Below, one piece after another: positions 1 to 10,679 of a stretch of DNA of 10,679 nt; positions within the stretch are counted from its first letter, which is position 1; every line of letters begins with the position of its first letter. Source of the stretch: a virus (lineage: Duplodnaviria > Heunggongvirae > Uroviricota > Caudoviricetes). The translations under genes were made by a program, and so were the position numbers. The stretch covers positions 1 to 10,679 of the IMG/VR virus record IMGVR_UViG_2609459795_000010; one strand, 5' to 3'. Below the pieces are notes generated by a model, which saw only the letters and a list, made by a program, of their open reading frames with translations, searched no databases and was not told where the DNA came from.

Positions 1-276
1 TTACCGACTGCGGCCTGAGTTTTTTAAGTGACGTAAAATCGTGTTGAGGCCAACGCCCATAATGCGGGCGGTTGCCCGGCATCCAACGCCATTCATGGCC
101 ATATCAATGATTTTCTGGTGCGTACCGGGTTGAGAAGCGGTGTAAGTGAACTGCAGTTGCCATGTTTTACGGCAGTGAGAGCAGAGATAGCGCTGATGTC
201 CGGCGGTGCTTTTGCCGTTACGCACCACCCCGTCAGTAGCTGAACAGGAGGGACAGCTGATAGAAACAGAAGCCAC
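1..276 (-). CDS. insA: IS1 InsA transposition regulator, 91 aa, GTG start
   Basis: Translation [43 protein letters not shown]...LKNSGRSR is recognisable as canonical IS1 InsA (CxxC...CxxC zinc finger). Stop codon sits at 1-3. Confidence 0.92.
19..25 (-). promoter_or_regulatory. IS1 AAAAAAC programmed -1 frameshift motif (InsAB' fusion site)
   Basis: Minus strand reads AAAAAAC just before the insA stop. This is the established IS1 slippery site; insB lies outside the window. Confidence 0.6.
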
Positions 277-3804: not shown

Positions 3805-4274
3805 ACCTTCCTCGGTTTAGTGTTTTTTTTGCGAGTTTAGTGTTTAATAAACCATTAAGTCAAGTATTTGCTTGTTTAGTGATTACTAAAGATAATTACC
3901 ACATGCAAAAAAAAGAAATTCGCCGTTTACGTCTCAAGGAGTGGTTTAAAGATAAAACTCTGCCACCCAAAGAGAAGAGCTACCTATCTCAATTAATGAG
4001 TGGGAGAGCCTCGTTTGGAGAAAAGGCTGCCAGAAGAATAGAGCAAACATACGGGATGCCGGAAGGGTATCTGGATGCGGAATACGCAGAACAACCGGGG
4101 GTTTCTCCACCACATACAGGGTTAACGTCTAATCAACTGGAATTATTGCAGATTTTTTCAGCCTTCCCTGAGGATGAGCAACGCCAGATAATCAGCGAGT
4201 TAAAGCAGAAAAAAGAATCAATGGAAGATCTCATAGCGAGATGGATTGCGGCGCAAAAATGCCGCCGCGCCTGA
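3798..4274 (+). CDS. racR: Prophage repressor, RacR-like HTH_XRE protein (158 aa from ATG 3798; ATG at 3903 giving 123 aa is the more plausible start)
   Basis: HTH motif SYLSQLMSGRASFGEKAARRIEQTYG. Divergent from the Cro-like gene across an operator-repeat region. The 158-aa length matches my recollection of K-12 RacR. The first 35 codons overlap the operator region and the ydaS start. Confidence 0.82.
   Translation: MSYLPRFSVFFASLVFNKPLSQVFACLVITKDNYHMQKKEIRRLRLKEWFKDKTLPPKEKSYLSQLMSGRASFGEKAARRIEQTYGMPEGYLDAEYAEQPGVSPPHTGLTSNQLELLQIFSAFPEDEQRQIISELKQKKESMEDLIARWIAAQKCRRA
3805..3902. promoter_or_regulatory. Divergent operator/promoter region (OR analogue): three GTTTAGTG repeats plus candidate divergent promoters
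   Basis: GTTTAGTG at 3815-3822, 3835-3842 and 3874-3881. Minus-strand TTGACT (3863..3858) with TAAACT (3839..3834) at 18-nt spacing, reading toward ydaS. Plus-strand GATAAT (3891-3896) 6 nt before the ATG at 3903, suggesting a leaderless repressor mRNA. Confidence 0.5.
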
Positions 4275-4294
4275 GTTATAAAACCGGAGGAAAC

Positions 4295-4486
4295 ATGAAT
4301 AGAGCCCTTTCACCAATGGTTTCTGAATTTGAAACCATTGAACAAGAAAACAGTTACAACGAATGGCTGCGTGCGAAAGTAGCAACGAGCCTTGCAGATC
4401 CGCGCCCAGCAATTCCCCATGACGAAGTTGAGCGCAGAATGGCAGAACGCTTTGCTAAGATGCGCAAGGAACGGAGCAAGCAGTAA
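4295..4486 (+). CDS. Putative type II antitoxin (ParD/RelB-like), 63 aa
   Basis: GGAGG Shine-Dalgarno 4 nt upstream of the ATG. Stop TAA is 1 nt before the ParE-like start. Small acidic protein with a basic C-terminus. Assignment rests mainly on its position upstream of the toxin. Confidence 0.6.
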   Translation: MNRALSPMVSEFETIEQENSYNEWLRAKVATSLADPRPAIPHDEVERRMAERFAKMRKERSKQ

Positions 4487-4487
4487 A

Positions 4488-4766
4488 ATGTTACCCGTGT
4501 TATGGCTTGAAAGCGCAGATACCGACCTAGATGATATAACTAGTTATATTGCTCGTTTCGACATAGATGCGGCTGAACGCTTATGGCAGCGATTAAGGGG
4601 TTGTGTGCTGCCGTTATCCGAACATCCGTATTTATACCCACCAAGCGACAGAGTACCTGGCTTGCGTGAGATTGTAGCCCACCCTAACTATATAATTCTA
4701 TACCGCGTAACAACATCAAGCGTTGAAGTAGTAAACGTGATCCACGCAAGACGCCAGTTTCCCTAA
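4488..4766 (+). CDS. ParE/RelE-superfamily toxin, 92 aa
   Basis: C-terminal signature PGLREIVAHPNYIILYRVTTSSVEVVNVIHARRQFP fits the ParE consensus (GLRE...Y.I.YRV....V.I.RV.H.R). Start is tightly coupled to the upstream small ORF. Confidence 0.78.
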   Translation: MLPVLWLESADTDLDDITSYIARFDIDAAERLWQRLRGCVLPLSEHPYLYPPSDRVPGLREIVAHPNYIILYRVTTSSVEVVNVIHARRQFP

Positions 4767-4789
4767 CTTTCACTACCAATAGAAACATA

Positions 4790-4826
4790 ACAACCGCAAC
4801 GACTTTATCAAAAGCGTTGTGTTTGT
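4790..4826 (+). terminator. Imperfect hairpin after the toxin gene; weak terminator candidate
   Basis: ACAACCGCAACG (4790-4801) pairs with CGTTGTGTTTGT (4815-4826) with one mismatch and one G-U. The T-rich tract downstream is not immediately adjacent. Confidence 0.25.
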
Positions 4827-4835
4827 TATGTTTCG

Positions 4836-4880
4836 CGGTTTAGTTTTTACTTGACTTAAGTTTAATGTTTATTAAACTAA
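4836..4880 (+). promoter_or_regulatory. OL/pL-like promoter-operator: TTGACT (4851-4856), 16-nt spacer, TAAACT (4873-4878), flanked by two degenerate GTTTAGTGTTT copies
   Basis: GTTTAGTtTTT at 4838-4848 and GTTTAaTGTTT at 4860-4870. The core TTGACTTAA...TTTATTAAAC is nearly identical to the minus-strand promoter core in the 3805-3902 region. Confidence 0.45.
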
Positions 4881-5063
4881 AATACCAACCCACCCCGCCC
4901 CACAGAACGCAGGGAAATACTTCGAGTTACCCGGCAGTGGTCAGGGGTTAAGTAGCCAGCCCGAGGCGTAAGAACATGACGGCAGGGTTCAACTTTAACT
5001 ATGCAGCAGGTTTTTGTTCCGCTACCCCGGCGTTAAGGGGAAACAGCACCGCGAGGAATCAGT

Positions 5064-5282
5064 ATGCAGAAACGAGAACCCGTCATCATCGCGCCAGACT
5101 ATACCGATGATGAACTTTATGAGTGGATGCGCCAGAAAATTAATGCAGCGCAGGATCTGAAATGGGCCAATGAAGCCAAGGCTAAGCAGGCTGAAAATCT
5201 GTCCGCTCTGGAGCAGGATATCACCAGGCTGGAAAAAGCAGCGGCATTAAGCATTGCCAGAATGATTACATGCCCGCGTTAA
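5064..5282 (+). CDS. Hypothetical small protein, 72 aa, predicted helical; first ORF after the OL-like promoter
   Basis: GAGGA Shine-Dalgarno 6 nt upstream of the ATG; double stop TAA TAG. No family recognised; not arginine-rich, so not N-like. Confidence 0.65.
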   Translation: MQKREPVIIAPDYTDDELYEWMRQKINAAQDLKWANEAKAKQAENLSALEQDITRLEKAAALSIARMITCPR

Positions 5283-5304
5283 TAGCTAACCAACGAGGCT
5301 AATA

Positions 5305-5634
5305 ATGGAATTTAAAGATTTACCAATGCAATTCCAGGAAATGGCAGCGAATATAGTTCGTTCCCAACTGGCGACTCTTGACCTGAGTACCGTAGAAAAA
5401 GAAACCATCGATACTATATCCGGTAACGTGCGTCGTGCCTTTATCGGTCTGTACGAAGAGAAGCAGCTCTCTGATAACCTGGATTTACATGAAAAATACT
5501 TCCTGGATCTAATGGACATCATTGATAAGGGGTTTGGCTTGTTAATGAAAAAGAAAGGGATTCGAATAGAACCCCTTGAAAATTACCTTGCAACAAAAAG
5601 CATTAATTCTTTTGATTCAAAACAAGAGAATTAA
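5305..5634 (+). CDS. Hypothetical protein, 109 aa
   Basis: GAGG Shine-Dalgarno 6 nt upstream of the ATG, 22 bp after the previous stop. AT-rich. No family recognised. Confidence 0.65.
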   Translation: MEFKDLPMQFQEMAANIVRSQLATLDLSTVEKETIDTISGNVRRAFIGLYEEKQLSDNLDLHEKYFLDLMDIIDKGFGLLMKKKGIRIEPLENYLATKSINSFDSKQEN

Positions 5635-5877
5635 TTACAGATTTAACATGCTCTTTCTCATGATTGAAGCTCTCATGATTGAAAGTGCCTGGTTGAAGCG
5701 AGTCGATATAATCAACAAGACTCTGTCGTACGACTTCATTTTTATCCATTACAGATGCAAGAAATGAAATTGCTAAAAGAGTTATATCACTACGCGCCGC
5801 AGCATGCTGCAATGCTTTATCAAAATTATTAATCTGGCGTATCAGGGAGTTAATGATTTCATCATTTTCAGTCGACA
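5603..5877 (-). CDS. Hypothetical protein, 91 aa, convergent with and overlapping the 3' end of the 109-aa ORF by 32 bp
   Basis: ATG at 5877..5875 with strong GGAGGG Shine-Dalgarno upstream on the minus strand. Very AT-rich. The ORF track extends it to 202 aa, but that N-terminal extension is GC-rich, Arg-rich and looks non-coding. Confidence 0.6.
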
Positions 5878-6432
5878 TTTCACCCTCCTGAGGGTTGGTG
5901 ATTAAGGAGTTCTCCACGGGTGAGGTGGAGTGCGTGCGCCGGACACGGGTGAGCATCCGGCACTGACAGTTTACTGAAAGGATATTTCCCTGAAAAGTCA
6001 GACCATAACGCGAAAGCGCACGGCGAGGTAGCTGGTTCATAGATAGCCTGTCGTTAAATTTTCGTCGACCGTGCGCTTCCGGTTGTGGCACTCCGCGAAA
6101 TGGCGCGGCGGTAAGTATGGCGGGGGTATTCCTTCCCCGTTGAGGACACCGGGTTGTCAGGTTGACCATACGCTTAAGTGACAACCCCGCTGCAACGCCC
6201 TCTGTTATCAATTTTCTGGTGACGTTTGGCGGTATCAGTTTTACTCCGTGACTGGTCTGCCGCCCTTTTTAAAGTGAGTTTTGTGATGCGGTGAATGCGG
6301 CTGAGCGCACGCGGAACAGTTAAAACCAAAAACAGTGTTATGGGTGGGTTCTCTGTATCCGGCGTTAATTGTTAACTGGTTAACGTCACCTGGAGGCACC
6401 AGGCACCGCATCAACAAAGTTCATTTGTAAAA
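5878..6432. other. 555-bp GC-rich, hairpin-dense non-coding tract between divergent genes; candidate structured RNA, long leader or gene remnant
   Basis: No convincing ORF on either strand. Hairpins read directly include GGTTGTCA...TGACAACC (8-bp stem), CCGCG-AAATGG-CGCGG and CCGGA...TCCGG. Composition contrasts with the AT-rich flanks. Confidence 0.3.
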
Positions 6433-6444
6433 ATGGAGATAATT

Positions 6445-6666
6445 ATGATTGCTCATCACTTCGGAACTGATGAGATTCCTCGTCAGTGCGTGACTCCCGG
6501 TGATTATGTTATTCATAAAGGAAGAACATATATTGCTTCGGTAAACAACATTAAAAAACAACGGCTCTATATTCGTGATTTTTCCACACAACACTGTATT
6601 AAGGAAACCATGATTAAAGTCTTCCTTGGTCGTGATGGTTTACCTGTAAAAGCAGAGTCATGGTGA
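6445..6666 (+). CDS. Small prophage protein, 73 aa (77 aa if started at ATG 6433); possibly YdaC-like, unverified
   Basis: GGAG Shine-Dalgarno 6 nt before the ATG at 6445. Location two genes upstream of xis/int resembles the Rac ydaC position. The family name is recollection only. Confidence 0.65.
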
Positions 6667-6789
6667 GCAGTAATAAAATAACTGCCACAATACGACATTC
6701 AGCTTAATGAATACATCAGATTTGATTCTTATATGCCAGCAATGGCAGGGATTTGTTCATCCTTAAATCTGTCATGAGGTTAAAACAAA

Positions 6790-7710
6790 ATGAGTAAAGT
6801 CTTTATTTGCGCCGCCATTCCGGACGAACAGGCAATAAAGGAAGAAGGTGCAGTTGCTGTAGCCACTGCCATTGAAGCCGGTGACGAACGCCGCGCCCGT
6901 GCCAAATTTACCTGGCAATTCCTGGAGCAATATCCGGCTGCTCAGGACTGCGCTTATAAATTTCTTGTCTGCGAGGATAAACCCGGTATACCCCGCCCTG
7001 CCCTCGATTCCTGGGATGCTGAATATATGCGGGAAAACCGCTGGGATGAGGAGTCAGCTTCCTTTGTCCCGGTTGAGACTGAATCAAATCCGATGAACGT
7101 CACTTTTGACAAGCTGGCCCCTGAAGTACAGAACGCTGTCATGGTTAAGTTCGACACATGTGAAAACATCACCGTTGATATGGTGATTAGTGCACAGGAA
7201 CTGTTGCAGGAAGACATGGCAACATTCGACGGACATATCGTTGAAGCGTTGATGAAAATGCCAGAAGTTAACGCCATGTATCCGGAACTTAAGTTGCATG
7301 CCATCGGGTGGGTTAAGCATAAATGTAAGCCTGGAGCTAAATGGCCCGAAATTCAGGCAGAGATGCGCATCTGGAAAAAACGTCGCGAAGGTGAACGCAA
7401 GGGAACCGGAAAATACACGTCTGTTGTTGATCTCGCCCGCGCCAGAGCCAATCAACAGAACACTGAAAGTTCAACAGGAAAAATCAGCCCGGTCATTGCT
7501 GCCACTCATCGCGAATACAAGCAGACATGGAAAACACTGGATGACGAACTGGCCTACGCTCTCTGGCCTGGTGATGTGGATGCCGGAAACATTGACGGCA
7601 GCATTCATCGCTGGGCAAAAAATGAAGTTATCGACAACGACCGCGAAGACTGGAAGCGTATCTCGGCATCAATGCGCAAACAGCCTGATGCCCTTCGCTA
7701 CGACCGCTAG
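6790..7710 (+). CDS. Hypothetical protein, 306 aa, acidic; ends at a TAG that is in frame with the next ORF
   Basis: ATG with GAGG about 10 nt upstream. Long open frame. No family recognised. Confidence 0.72.
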   Translation: MSKVFICAAIPDEQAIKEEGAVAVATAIEAGDERRARAKFTWQFLEQYPAAQDCAYKFLVCEDKPGIPRPALDSWDAEYMRENRWDEESASFVPVETESNPMNVTFDKLAPEVQNAVMVKFDTCENITVDMVISAQELLQEDMATFDGHIVEALMKMPEVNAMYPELKLHAIGWVKHKCKPGAKWPEIQAEMRIWKKRREGERKGTGKYTSVVDLARARANQQNTESSTGKISPVIAATHREYKQTWKTLDDELAYALWPGDVDAGNIDGSIHRWAKNEVIDNDREDWKRISASMRKQPDALRYDR

Positions 7711-7761: not shown

Positions 7762-9261
7762 GTGGCACTGAACAAATACATTACTGAATACCTGACTACA
7801 AAGGGCGTGTTTGAAGATGAAGGAACAAATCAGAGCGCAACTGATACTCTCTCGTCGCCAGTACCAGAAACTGATGCAGTGGAAACGGCAATTCCGGACA
7901 ACGAAAAAACCGAATGCAAAGTGGAAGTCGAACCATCTGTAGAGCGTGAGGGGCCGTTCTACTTCCTCTTCACCGACAAGGATGGCGAAAAATACGGTCG
8001 CGCAAACAAACTTTCTGGTCTGGATAAGGCGCTGGCTGCCGGGGCTACTGAAATCACGAAAGAAGAATATTTCGCCCGCAAAAACAGTACATACTCAGGT
8101 TCACAACAAAATACTGGTGCATCTGACACGACCGCACAGCCAGAACCGGTAAAAGTTACCGCTGACGAAGTAAACAAAATTATGCAGGCAGCCAATATCA
8201 GCCAGCCTGACGCCGATAAGTTGCTTGCTGCATCACGTGGTGAATTTATTGAAGGGATTAGCGACCCGAATGATCCGAAATGGGTTAAGGGGATCCAGAC
8301 CCGCGATACTGTGAACCAGAACCAGCAAGAAACGGAACAGAACGACCAGAAAGCGGAACAAAACAGCCCAAATACGCAACAAAACGAGCCAGAAACGAAA
8401 CAACCTGAACCAGTAGTGCAACAGGAACCGGAAAAAATCTGCACCGCCTGCGGTCAGAGCGGTGGTGGCAACTGCCCTGATTGTGGTGCGGTGATGGGCG
8501 ACGCAACATACCAGGAAACATTCGATGACAAGAACCAGGTTGAAGTTCAGGAAGACGATTCGGAGAAAATGGAAGGCGCTGAACACCCACACAAGGAGAA
8601 TGCTGGCAGCGCTCAGGATCACGCCAGCGATAGTGAAACTGGCGAGACGGCAGATCCCTTAATTACGGTGAACGGTCATCGCGTTATCACATCCACCAGC
8701 AGGACGTGTGACCATCTAATGATCGACCTTGAAACCATGGGAAAAAATCCTGATGCCCCGATTATCTCAATAGGTGCAATATTTTTCGATCCGCAAACCG
8801 GAGATATGGGACCGGAATTTAGTAAGACTATCGATCTGGAAACTGCTGGCGGAGTCATTGATCGTGACACCATTAAATGGTGGCTTAAGCAATCACGCGA
8901 GGCGCAATCTGCCATTATGACCGATGAAATCCCGTTAGATGATGCACTGTTACAATTGCGGGAATTTATCGACGAAAACTCCGGTGAATTTTTTGTTCAG
9001 GTCTGGGGAAATGGAGCCAACTTCGACAACACGATTTTGCGCCGTTCATACGAGCGGCAGGGGATCCCCTACCCGTGGCGTTACTACAACGATCGCGATG
9101 TACGCACAATCGTTGAGCTGGGGAAAGCCATAGACTTCGATGCCAGAACTGCTATCCCATTCGAAGGTGAGCGCCATAATGCACTTGATGACGCTCGTTA
9201 CCAGGCAAAATACGTTTCAGCTATCTGGCAAAAACTGATCCCGAGTCAGGCTGATTTTTAA
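7762..9261 (+). CDS. Multidomain protein, 499 aa: acidic low-complexity N-terminal region, CxxC-x8-CxxC zinc ribbon, C-terminal DEDDh 3'-5' exonuclease domain (Rv2179c/RNase T-like)
   Basis: Exo motifs seen in the translation: IDLETMG (Exo I), [12 protein letters not shown] (Exo II), [10 protein letters not shown] (Exo III). Zinc ribbon [16 protein letters not shown]. Start is GTG with no clear SD. An internal start at the ATG near 8719 would give a domain-only exonuclease. Confidence 0.75.
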
Positions 9262-9592: not shown

Positions 9593-10679
9593 CGTAACCG
9601 GTCTTTACGAAAAGTTTGATCGCAGAACTGGCAGGGTTTACTACCAGTATAAAAACCCTGTGACTGGAAAATTTCACGGTCTCGGAACAGACAAAGGCAA
9701 AGCAGAAAAAATCGCTTCCACAGCCAATCAGCGAATAGCTGCAGCAGAAGCTGAATATTTCATGCGCAAAATTGATGAAAGTCCGTCAGCAACAAAACGT
9801 CGGGGCATCAGATTAAAGGCATGGGTTGATCGATATCTGAAAATACAGGACGCGCGACTGAAAAATGGAGATATTGCAGCTACAACTCACAAAGAAAAAA
9901 CTCGAATGGCTGCATACCTGGTTTCCCGTCTGGGAAACCACCCATTGAAAGAACTGGAAGTAAGAGACTTTGCATTAATACTGGATGAGTGGCTGGATAA
10001 AGACATGGTCAGCACAGCGAGAGTAAATCGTGGATTATGGGTTGATATTTATAAAGAAGCACAGCATGCAGGGGAAGTTCCTCCTGGATGGAATCCTCCG
10101 GAGGCTACCCGTAAACCGATCCCTAAAGTAACCAGAGCCAGGCTCACCATGGAAGACTGGCAAAAAATTTACAATGCAACGCCTGAAAAACACTTTATCC
10201 GTAACGCAATGCTTCTTGCGATTGTTACTGGTCAGCGCCGTGATGACATTTGCCACATGCGTTTTTCAGATGTGTGGAACGAACACTTGCATATCACCCA
10301 GGGAAAAACCGGAATGCGTCTGGCGTTACCGCTTACACTACGCTGTGATGCCATTGGGATAACGTTAAAAGAAGTTATTGATGGGTGCCGAGACAGAATA
10401 TTAAGTCCATATCTAATCCATAGTCGGCACCAGAAACAACCGAAGCCGATGAGTAAAGACAACCTGAGCGACTACTTTGCCAAAGCACGGGATCTGGCTG
10501 GGATAATTCCACCAGCAGGAAAAACTCCGCCAACATTTCATGAACAACGCTCTCTATCAGAACGGTTGTACCGTGCACAGGGTATCGATACAAAAACATT
10601 ACTAGGACATAAAGTCCAGGCAACCACCGATCGCTATAACGATACTCGAGGTCAGGAATGGGTTAAGTTGGTTATTTGA
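9561..10679 (+). CDS. int: Lambda-family tyrosine integrase, 372 aa, complete (TGA at window end)
   Basis: AAGGAG Shine-Dalgarno. Catalytic signatures TGQRRDDI (Arg), HEQRSLSERL (His-x-x-Arg), LLGHK and TDRYND (Tyr). C-terminus GQEWVKLVI parallels lambda Int GREWDKIEIK. Confidence 0.92.
   Translation: MSPRPRKNSTDVTGLYEKFDRRTGRVYYQYKNPVTGKFHGLGTDKGKAEKIASTANQRIAAAEAEYFMRKIDESPSATKRRGIRLKAWVDRYLKIQDARLKNGDIAATTHKEKTRMAAYLVSRLGNHPLKELEVRDFALILDEWLDKDMVSTARVNRGLWVDIYKEAQHAGEVPPGWNPPEATRKPIPKVTRARLTMEDWQKIYNATPEKHFIRNAMLLAIVTGQRRDDICHMRFSDVWNEHLHITQGKTGMRLALPLTLRCDAIGITLKEVIDGCRDRILSPYLIHSRHQKQPKPMSKDNLSDYFAKARDLAGIIPPAGKTPPTFHEQRSLSERLYRAQGIDTKTLLGHKVQATTDRYNDTRGQEWVKLVI

Follow-up and report, generated by a model that had tools for sequence, protein, structure and literature searches.

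The dicBF operon of the Qin prophage in Escherichia coli K-12, with the gene order ydfA-ydfB-ydfC-dicF-dicB-ydfD, is repressed by DicA, and published descriptions present the interval between ydfC and dicB as a long untranslated region. Lambdoid phages are also known for morons, which in the sense of Hendrix and colleagues are independently expressed extra genes placed between conserved phage genes. The moron concept has likewise been used for prophage accessory loci, of which genes antisense to lytic genes are typical (PMC7067206). Variable phage accessory regions concentrate conflict genes (bioRxiv 10.1101/2023.04.06.535777), and the P2/P4 hotspots offer an accessory-region comparison (PMC9122126). 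In the present study we have analysed the 10,679 nucleotides (nt) of the IMG/VR virus record IMGVR_UViG_2609459795_000010, referred to here as the window, and describe in its dicBF-type operon an exchangeable accessory cassette (5303-5892) located between ydfC and the leader of the DicF precursor. The cassette is an AT-rich segment of 590 base pairs (bp) that holds two genes only, named here after the length of their open reading frames (ORFs) in amino acids (aa): ORF109 on the plus strand and, converging on it, ORF91 on the minus strand. The published descriptions of dicBF that we consulted do not mention it, and in the literature on ydfC and dicBF we found no paper describing it.

The window is a Qin/Rac-type lambdoid prophage of E. 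coli and the region studied is its dicBF early-left operon, an identity established by DicF, ydfC, kil and the annotated relatives. The small RNA DicF (6214-6265, plus strand) matches Rfam RF00039 over its full length with 74.2 bits against a gathering score of 48 (E-value (E) 2.8e-15), and lies on the same strand as the plus-strand ORFs of the locus. ydfC (5064-5282, plus strand, 72 aa) is preceded by a GAGGAA Shine-Dalgarno (SD) sequence 5 nt ahead of its ATG at 5064; its product is identical to K-12 YdfC at 69 of 72 residues (96%) and matches phrog_1744 (E 1.4e-38), and relatives annotate the same gene as ydfC. The gene for the FtsZ inhibitor Kil (6433-6666, plus strand) was assigned by NCBIfam NF008465 (E 2.3e-41) and phrog_294. 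The complete order is repressor, PaaA2/ParE pair, promoter-like site, ydfC, ORF109 with ORF91 on the opposite strand, a 320-nt leader, DicF, kil, exonuclease, xis and int. Thus the locus resembles K-12 Qin in its ydfC, its leader of about 320 nt, its DicF and its location between the immunity region and the exonuclease/xis/int genes, but differs from it in the deletion of ydfA and ydfB, in a distinct immunity region with a PaaA2/ParE pair, in carrying kil 3' of DicF where K-12 has dicB-ydfD, and in the cassette itself, which K-12 does not have. Since relatives with the same cassette carry dicB, this part of the operon is also mosaic. The original prediction, which had been made from the sequence of the window, placed the ORFs correctly in an early operon and had not recognised the well-known dicBF identity with DicF at 6214-6265.

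The boundaries of the cassette are defined by comparison of empty and filled sites. In K-12 Qin the ydfC stop is followed by 20 nt and then directly by the leader (...GCTAA joined to GGTTAGTAATTAAGGAG), so that the cassette is precisely absent, and the empty junction (GCTAA joined to GGTT(A/G)GTAA) is found in K-12 and in many viral contigs, while the filled junction reads ...CATTTCACCCTCCTGAG joined to GGTTGGT. The leader (5893-6213, plus strand) is conserved, GC-rich and outside the cassette, and is near-identical in K-12; in a census of 5,426 complete E. coli genomes it matched at 9,634 places in 4,429 of them, and many of these matches begin at query position 15, which corresponds to window position 5893. 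A scan of the right junction with a leader motif returned two states only, empty or this cassette family. Phage Evi carries a different insert at exactly the same two junctions, with a plus gene beginning MEFKDLP and a different minus gene at the same SD and ATG. The conserved right end of the cassette (5879-5892, minus strand) contains the SD of the minus gene, reads TTCACCCTCCTGAG on the plus strand and is absent from empty sites. A 19-mer spanning the right junction retrieved 120 viral-contig loci. The adjacent minus-strand ATG is found in all 120, and a full-length minus ORF is missing only from a few truncated or cut copies.

In the same census the N-terminus of the plus gene was found at 1,765 places in about 1,500 genomes, which compared with the 9,634 places of the leader indicates that about a fifth of the dicBF-type loci are filled. 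The minus gene of type C, which is ORF91, accounts for 201 places in 198 genomes, type A for 664 (O157:H7 included), type B for 129 and type D for 91; some 680 plus-gene copies fall outside types A-D, and several hundred filled copies carry minus genes other than the catalogued types. The GC content is 0.348 in ORF91 and 0.356 in the distal half of ORF109, against 0.489 in ydfC and 0.552 in the flanking leader. The filled sites all agree at both ends, and the empty site is likewise uniform. A site-specific, integron-like insertion was nevertheless considered and rejected, since neither a target duplication nor a convincing resemblance of the cassette junction to the empty site was seen; one ancestral event, either an insertion or a deletion, with later replacements inside the segment is the simpler account. 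The reading of the AT-rich segment as a horizontally acquired, moron-type insertion is borne out by the empty site in K-12 Qin and by the other cassettes in the same slot, and the survey of related prophages found the ORFs conserved among them. The three-ORF cassette originally proposed is reduced to ORF109 and ORF91, ydfC being a named but unstudied prophage gene that is not part of it. We hold this anatomy, and the status of the locus as a hotspot, with high confidence.

Both ORF109 and ORF91 are real genes. ORF91 (5603-5878, minus strand, 91 aa) runs from an ATG at 5878 to a stop at 5603; the start had been placed at 5877, but the interval 5603-5877 is out of frame and the start lies one base further. 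Its SD, AGGAGGG, stands 4 nt ahead of 5878 and is the strongest of the three ORFs, and the gene is annotated in E. coli CFSAN018748, whose sequence is 100% identical over ORF91, as a hypothetical protein of 91 aa (WP_000102679.1). ORF109 (5305-5634, plus strand, 109 aa) has the SD GAGG 7 nt ahead of 5305. When 5283-5892 is shuffled, 0.6% of the resulting sequences contain an ATG ORF of 109 aa or more; for 5590-5890 and a minimum length of 91 aa the figure is 0.12%. Compared with one diverged allele (L124, 85% nucleotide identity), the ratio of nonsynonymous to synonymous substitution rates (dN/dS) is 0.31 in ORF91, lower than in any of the other five frames, while ORF109 has a ratio of 0.41. 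The case for both genes is made by these ratios together with lengths beyond chance, an SD and start conserved across the cassette types and intact reading frames in hundreds of genomes. All three ORFs of the original prediction (72, 109 and 91 aa) therefore exist, each with an SD, and they are longer than shuffles predict. Two longer versions of the minus ORF were discarded, a 202-aa ORF (5603-6211, mechanically the longest), which is an accident, and a 145-aa version given in some RefSeq records; in neither is the upstream frame conserved. Of the about 115 related loci with enough sequence, most have a stop either at once or after 14 open codons in the frame 5' of the minus-strand ATG, and the segment 5' of the minus ATG varies by 1-4 nt in length among related loci.

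The minus-strand gene is the part of the slot that is exchanged. The 120 viral-contig loci carry type A (77 aa), type B (92 aa), type C (ORF91), type D (73 aa) and type E (63 aa), and outside this set we saw type F, which is D-like, and type G (100 aa), which matches phrog_8894. Profile comparison detected a relationship between types B and C only (31% identity over 77 columns), and at least six sequence families begin from one SD and ATG. Six of the seven types have an isoelectric point (pI) of 5.1-5.7, type A being basic, and the maximum 19-residue hydropathy is at most 1.43 in all slot proteins, which have no hydrophobic segments. ORF91 itself is mildly acidic (pI 5.4), soluble and free of transmembrane segments, and its AlphaFold2 model has four predicted helices with a predicted local distance difference test score (pLDDT) of 67.7.

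ORF109 is a modular protein. Its N-terminus (MEFKDLP..., residues 1 to about 55) is conserved and occurs in two allelic forms, and according to the alignments the rest of the plus-strand protein is one of at least four alternative bodies, of which one is common to types A and E and another to types C and D. The last residues follow the minus module, and the tail of type C ends at 106 or 109 aa through a stop-codon change. ORF109 matches phrog_6937 (E 1.4e-67), its N-terminal 55-64 aa also match phrog_1363, phrog_2151 and phrog_9419, and the model is all-helical with a pLDDT of 67. Its 234 homologues are all annotated as hypothetical, and the named ones belong to Escherichia and Salmonella. In one viral contig (L177, 8264-8674) a 136-aa fusion joins a YdfC-like N-terminus to a type-B-like plus-gene body and faces a D-like minus gene with a GTG start, pointing to further recombination across the slot. 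In another contig (L068), with a type D cassette, a mobile element lies inside the plus-strand gene, so that the cassette measures 1,366 bp with the minus gene intact; a minus-strand ORF of the element resembles an IS1 transposase by eye.

The two genes overlap at their 3' ends by exactly 32 bp (5603-5634), as the original prediction had located it. Every cassette type examined has such an overlap, of 11, 23, 29, 32, 41 or 77 bp, which looks like a by-product of two convergent modules packed without a spacer and not like a selected antisense design; in the alignments each ORF can be read as running into the other module until a stop is reached. On the minus strand, 25 nt past the ORF91 stop and within the coding sequence of ORF109, an intrinsic-terminator-like hairpin is followed by a T-run (5577-5545, hairpin 5577-5555), formed by AAGGGGTTC-TATTC-GAATCCCTT and then TCTTTTTCAT. 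Judged by these positions, transcripts of the two genes should overlap, giving about 90 nt of complementary RNA (5545-5634). Since no T-run follows the hairpin on the plus strand, read-through of the operon to DicF is not predicted to stop there. The strong SD, the terminator of its own and the deviant GC content argue for an independent minus-strand unit, and the minus gene does break, as had been remarked, an otherwise one-directional operon running to xis and int.

The early promoter candidate (4851-4878, plus strand, TTGACT-16-TAAACT in the promoter scan) is PL-like and of the dicB-operon type. It lies 3' of the repressor gene and the PaaA2/ParE pair, its sequence is found in phage Evi, and an inverted repeat of 8 bp, AGTTTAAT-GTTT-ATTAAACT (4859-4878), which in sequence looks like an operator, overlaps the candidate. 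The ORFs do therefore sit just 3' of an operator-overlapped early promoter candidate, in agreement with the position first assigned to them. The leader between the cassette and DicF is strongly structured on both strands beyond its shuffles (z -3.7 and -3.9).

The cassette fits two known kinds of element, the moron and the phage accessory-region hotspot, and is best read as an accessory hotspot of the moron type. Like a moron it is precisely present or absent at one site among related prophages, has a deviant GC content and a minus-strand terminator of its own, and is oriented against the lytic operon. Unlike a typical moron, the slot keeps its SD and start codon while the coding sequence is swapped, the cassette brings along a plus-strand gene that is co-oriented with the operon and itself mosaic, and neither scan nor manual reading found a convincing minus-strand promoter. 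Like the hotspots it has conserved flanks around variable, small and uncharacterised genes that are swapped among related phages, its identical flanks enclosing six or more families of minus genes and four or more bodies of the plus gene; it differs from them in being very small, effectively one exchangeable gene, and in lying within an operon of cell-division inhibitors. A further parallel is sieB, which in the Rac-type phage vB_EcoS-666R9 occupies the opposite strand between a DUF1391 gene and kil. SieB is described as a membrane protein, and that sieB ORF of about 200 aa has no sequence relation to ORF91, whereas the slot proteins are smaller and without a hydrophobic segment; nor is the flanking leader common to vB_EcoS-666R9. 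From type II toxin-antitoxin loci the cassette is set apart by convergent genes, partners that are not strictly cognate and the lack of any toxin, antitoxin or helix-turn-helix domain, and from anti-CRISPR (Aca) loci by convergent genes and a conserved ORF109 N-terminus that has no helix-turn-helix match in Pfam or NCBIfam. By the features compared, the cassette does not belong to any known defence, toxin-antitoxin, SieB or Aca-linked family.

Scanned against Pfam, NCBIfam, PHROGs and PADLOC, the three ORFs and the alternative slot proteins match only PHROG families of unknown function. Relatives of ORF91 were found in E. coli only, by a word-indexed search of 5.8e9 proteins and an exhaustive HMMER search of 1.84e9 representatives, which returned ORF91 itself and fragments; a repeat-protein match (E 5e-5) was regarded as compositional and set aside. 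No known defence or anti-defence gene was seen among the catalogued slot occupants. The statement that none of the three ORFs has a recognisable family holds for ORF91, and gives way to YdfC and phrog_1744 for the 72-aa ORF and to phrog_6937 for ORF109. Remote-homology and structure searches, which had been suggested as a check, left ORF109 and ORF91 without a functional family or fold match.

As for function, our proposal is tentative, possible rather than probable. ORF91 would be transcribed independently of the repressed early operon and hence probably in the lysogen, whereas ORF109 would be an early protein made only after derepression. The product of ORF91, which appears to be small, mildly acidic and helical and to lack enzymatic motifs, may bind and block a host or incoming-phage protein stoichiometrically, and could serve in superinfection or host modulation, as other small soluble prophage proteins do. 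An arms-race pressure would then account for the way in which gene families replace one another at a single fixed slot. The proposal is supported by context, namely the antisense accessory genes and the variable conflict regions described in other prophages and phages, and the parallel with sieB.

Several observations weigh against this proposal. Most dicBF loci have no cassette, which is consequently dispensable. Pfam and NCBIfam contain no family for ORF109 or ORF91, the sole PADLOC match is BrxA for ORF91 (E 0.014, 12.8 bits), with none for ORF109 or ydfC, and sequence-profile searches of the PDB with ORF91 and ORF109 were negative. Comparison of the two models with the PDB and BFVD by Foldseek gave nothing below E 0.6, a negative that is weak given the pLDDT of about 67 of both models. 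None of these searches gave direct support to the defence or anti-defence function suggested in the original prediction. On the side of expression, the minus-strand terminator is clear only in types C and D and less so in A, B and E, and the scan of the minus strand from 5879 to 6700 found no sigma-70 consensus. With only 14 nt of the cassette 5' of the ORF91 ATG, any promoter must lie within the leader or beyond; the best manual candidate there, TTTTCA-17-TAAACT near 5997-5969, agrees at only 8 of 12 positions, and a published source of transcription-start data contains nothing relevant for the K-12 leader. With no minus promoter found, independent expression of ORF91 in the lysogen is an assumption of the proposal. 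In addition, a segment of 35% GC in E. coli may be silenced by H-NS, and the literature searched yielded no expression or phenotype data for the locus. Anatomy and function taken together in a single compromise figure come out somewhat short of an even chance.

The alternative explanations differ in the role they give to the minus proteins. These might be anti-defence or host-takeover inhibitors, resembling anti-restriction or anti-CRISPR proteins, and not protective products of the lysogen; a constitutive or early promoter would then express them as infection or induction begins. The slot proteins are indeed small and soluble, with an acidic pI in six of the seven types, but ORF91 is oriented against the early operon, and known counter-defence genes are generally found within early transcripts. 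Many unrelated families in one slot beside a conserved neighbour are a signature of counter-defence-rich regions (bioRxiv 10.1101/2023.04.06.535777), yet the conserved neighbour here is unlike Aca in having no detectable helix-turn-helix, the scan gave no minus promoter, and neither sequence nor fold matched a known inhibitor. We regard this explanation as unlikely. A more far-reaching reading, equally doubtful in our view, would see in the slot a dedicated expression socket, with a fixed ribosome-binding site and start opposite the early operon, by which E. coli lambdoid prophages exchange unrelated small soluble proteins; these would be several new prophage inhibitor families, anti-phage or anti-defence, and might form a self/non-self pair together with the polymorphic MEFKDLP protein.

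Distinctly improbable is that ORF109 and ORF91 form a cognate toxin-immunity or toxin-antitoxin pair in which the plus protein is harmful and the minus protein neutralises it. The conserved N-terminus and variable C-terminal part of the plus protein recall polymorphic toxins, and plus and minus genes co-occur with a 3' overlap wherever both ends can be read; against this, one plus body can be paired with more than one minus gene (A and E; C and D), the N-terminal alleles assort freely, and the plus protein tracks the minus module in its last few residues only, with the type C tail of 106 or 109 aa. Moreover, the genes are convergent and not co-transcribed, and no toxin, antitoxin or DNA-binding domain was matched.

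We give still less credence to a function at the level of the RNA or of the act of transcription, by which minus-strand transcription would collide with the early transcript, or its RNA pair with it, and so dampen leaky expression of the toxic DicF and kil/dicB, leaving the ORFs a secondary part. Antisense RNAs of prophages that act in exclusion do exist (PMC7067206), the toxic genes are separated from the early promoter by the cassette, and the position of the minus terminator inside ORF109 would produce the complementary transcripts of about 90 nt already mentioned. An intact ORF behind a strong conserved SD in every variant and a dN/dS that is lowest in the ORF91 frame speak instead for a protein, about 80% of the dicBF loci manage without the cassette, and no minus-strand promoter was found.

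It is very improbable that the cassette is passenger DNA, neutral and at present without a function for either phage or host: empty sites are common and the cassette thus dispensable, it is an orphan confined to Escherichia and Salmonella prophages, and cryptic prophages gather debris (this window has an IS1 gene, the ydfA/ydfB deletion and a nonsense codon in the exonuclease), but the ORFs are intact in hundreds of genomes with a dN/dS of 0.3-0.4, several alternative genes are kept at exactly the same start signal, and the cassette occurs in sequenced phage genome records and not in cryptic prophages alone.

Despite being a classic and much-studied locus, dicBF holds an unrecognised gene pair in about a fifth of its E. 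coli copies, O157:H7 included. Turnover of gene families at a fixed start usually marks conflict between phages or between phage and host, and the slot offers compact, easily cloned candidates of about 60-100 residues for exclusion or counter-defence proteins. Opposite-strand transcription, if it occurs, could furthermore affect DicF, Kil and DicB, and through them cell division and phage receptors. Even if the genes were inert, the locus would still be a clean example of modular exchange at lambdoid gene boundaries.

Upstream of the cassette, ydfC is the first gene of the operon in the window because ydfA and ydfB are deleted. The deletion is precise relative to K-12 and to the relative L001, where BLAST places the 306-bp gap at about window position 5040-5045, and it joins the promoter-proximal leader to the ydfC SD at a short GAAA(C/T) microhomology. 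At the ydfA/ydfB position phage Evi (3431-3637) has unrelated DNA with a minus-strand zinc-ribbon-like ORF (MNTIKFSCPECGG...KNCGH) antisense to an annotated plus-strand ORF; given this unrelated DNA, the position ahead of ydfC may be a second variable slot.

Downstream, a segment between DicF and kil (6281-6418, plus strand), conserved also in K-12, in Evi and in a Rac-type phage, matches the Salmonella small RNA STnc100 below threshold, with 37.7 bits where the gathering score is 47 (E 2e-5). A single in-frame nonsense codon at 7708-7710, TAG in place of the CAG of L001 (C to T at 7708), divides the RecE-like exonuclease gene into ORFs of 306 aa (6790-7710) and 499 aa (7762-9261); relatives encode a single exonuclease protein of about 823 aa. 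Directly 3' of the repressor gene, at 4241-4766, lie a PaaA2-type antitoxin (81-aa ORF, PF21217, E 1.7e-19) and a ParE toxin (PF05016, E 4.8e-16). They occupy the position of rexAB in lambda, from which the pair is probably expressed in the lysogen. The stretch from parE to the early promoter contains a long inverted repeat that is nearly perfect (GAAACATAACAACCGCAACG...CGTTGTGTTTGTTATGTTTC, 4782-4834) and may either terminate the repressor/toxin-antitoxin transcript or serve as a regulatory site; a mir-4703 match to it was rejected as spurious, produced by the inverted repeat. Finally, a complete IS1 insA ORF (91 aa) at the left edge of the window (1-276) adjoins the prophage replication region, which suggests an IS1 insertion in the prophage.

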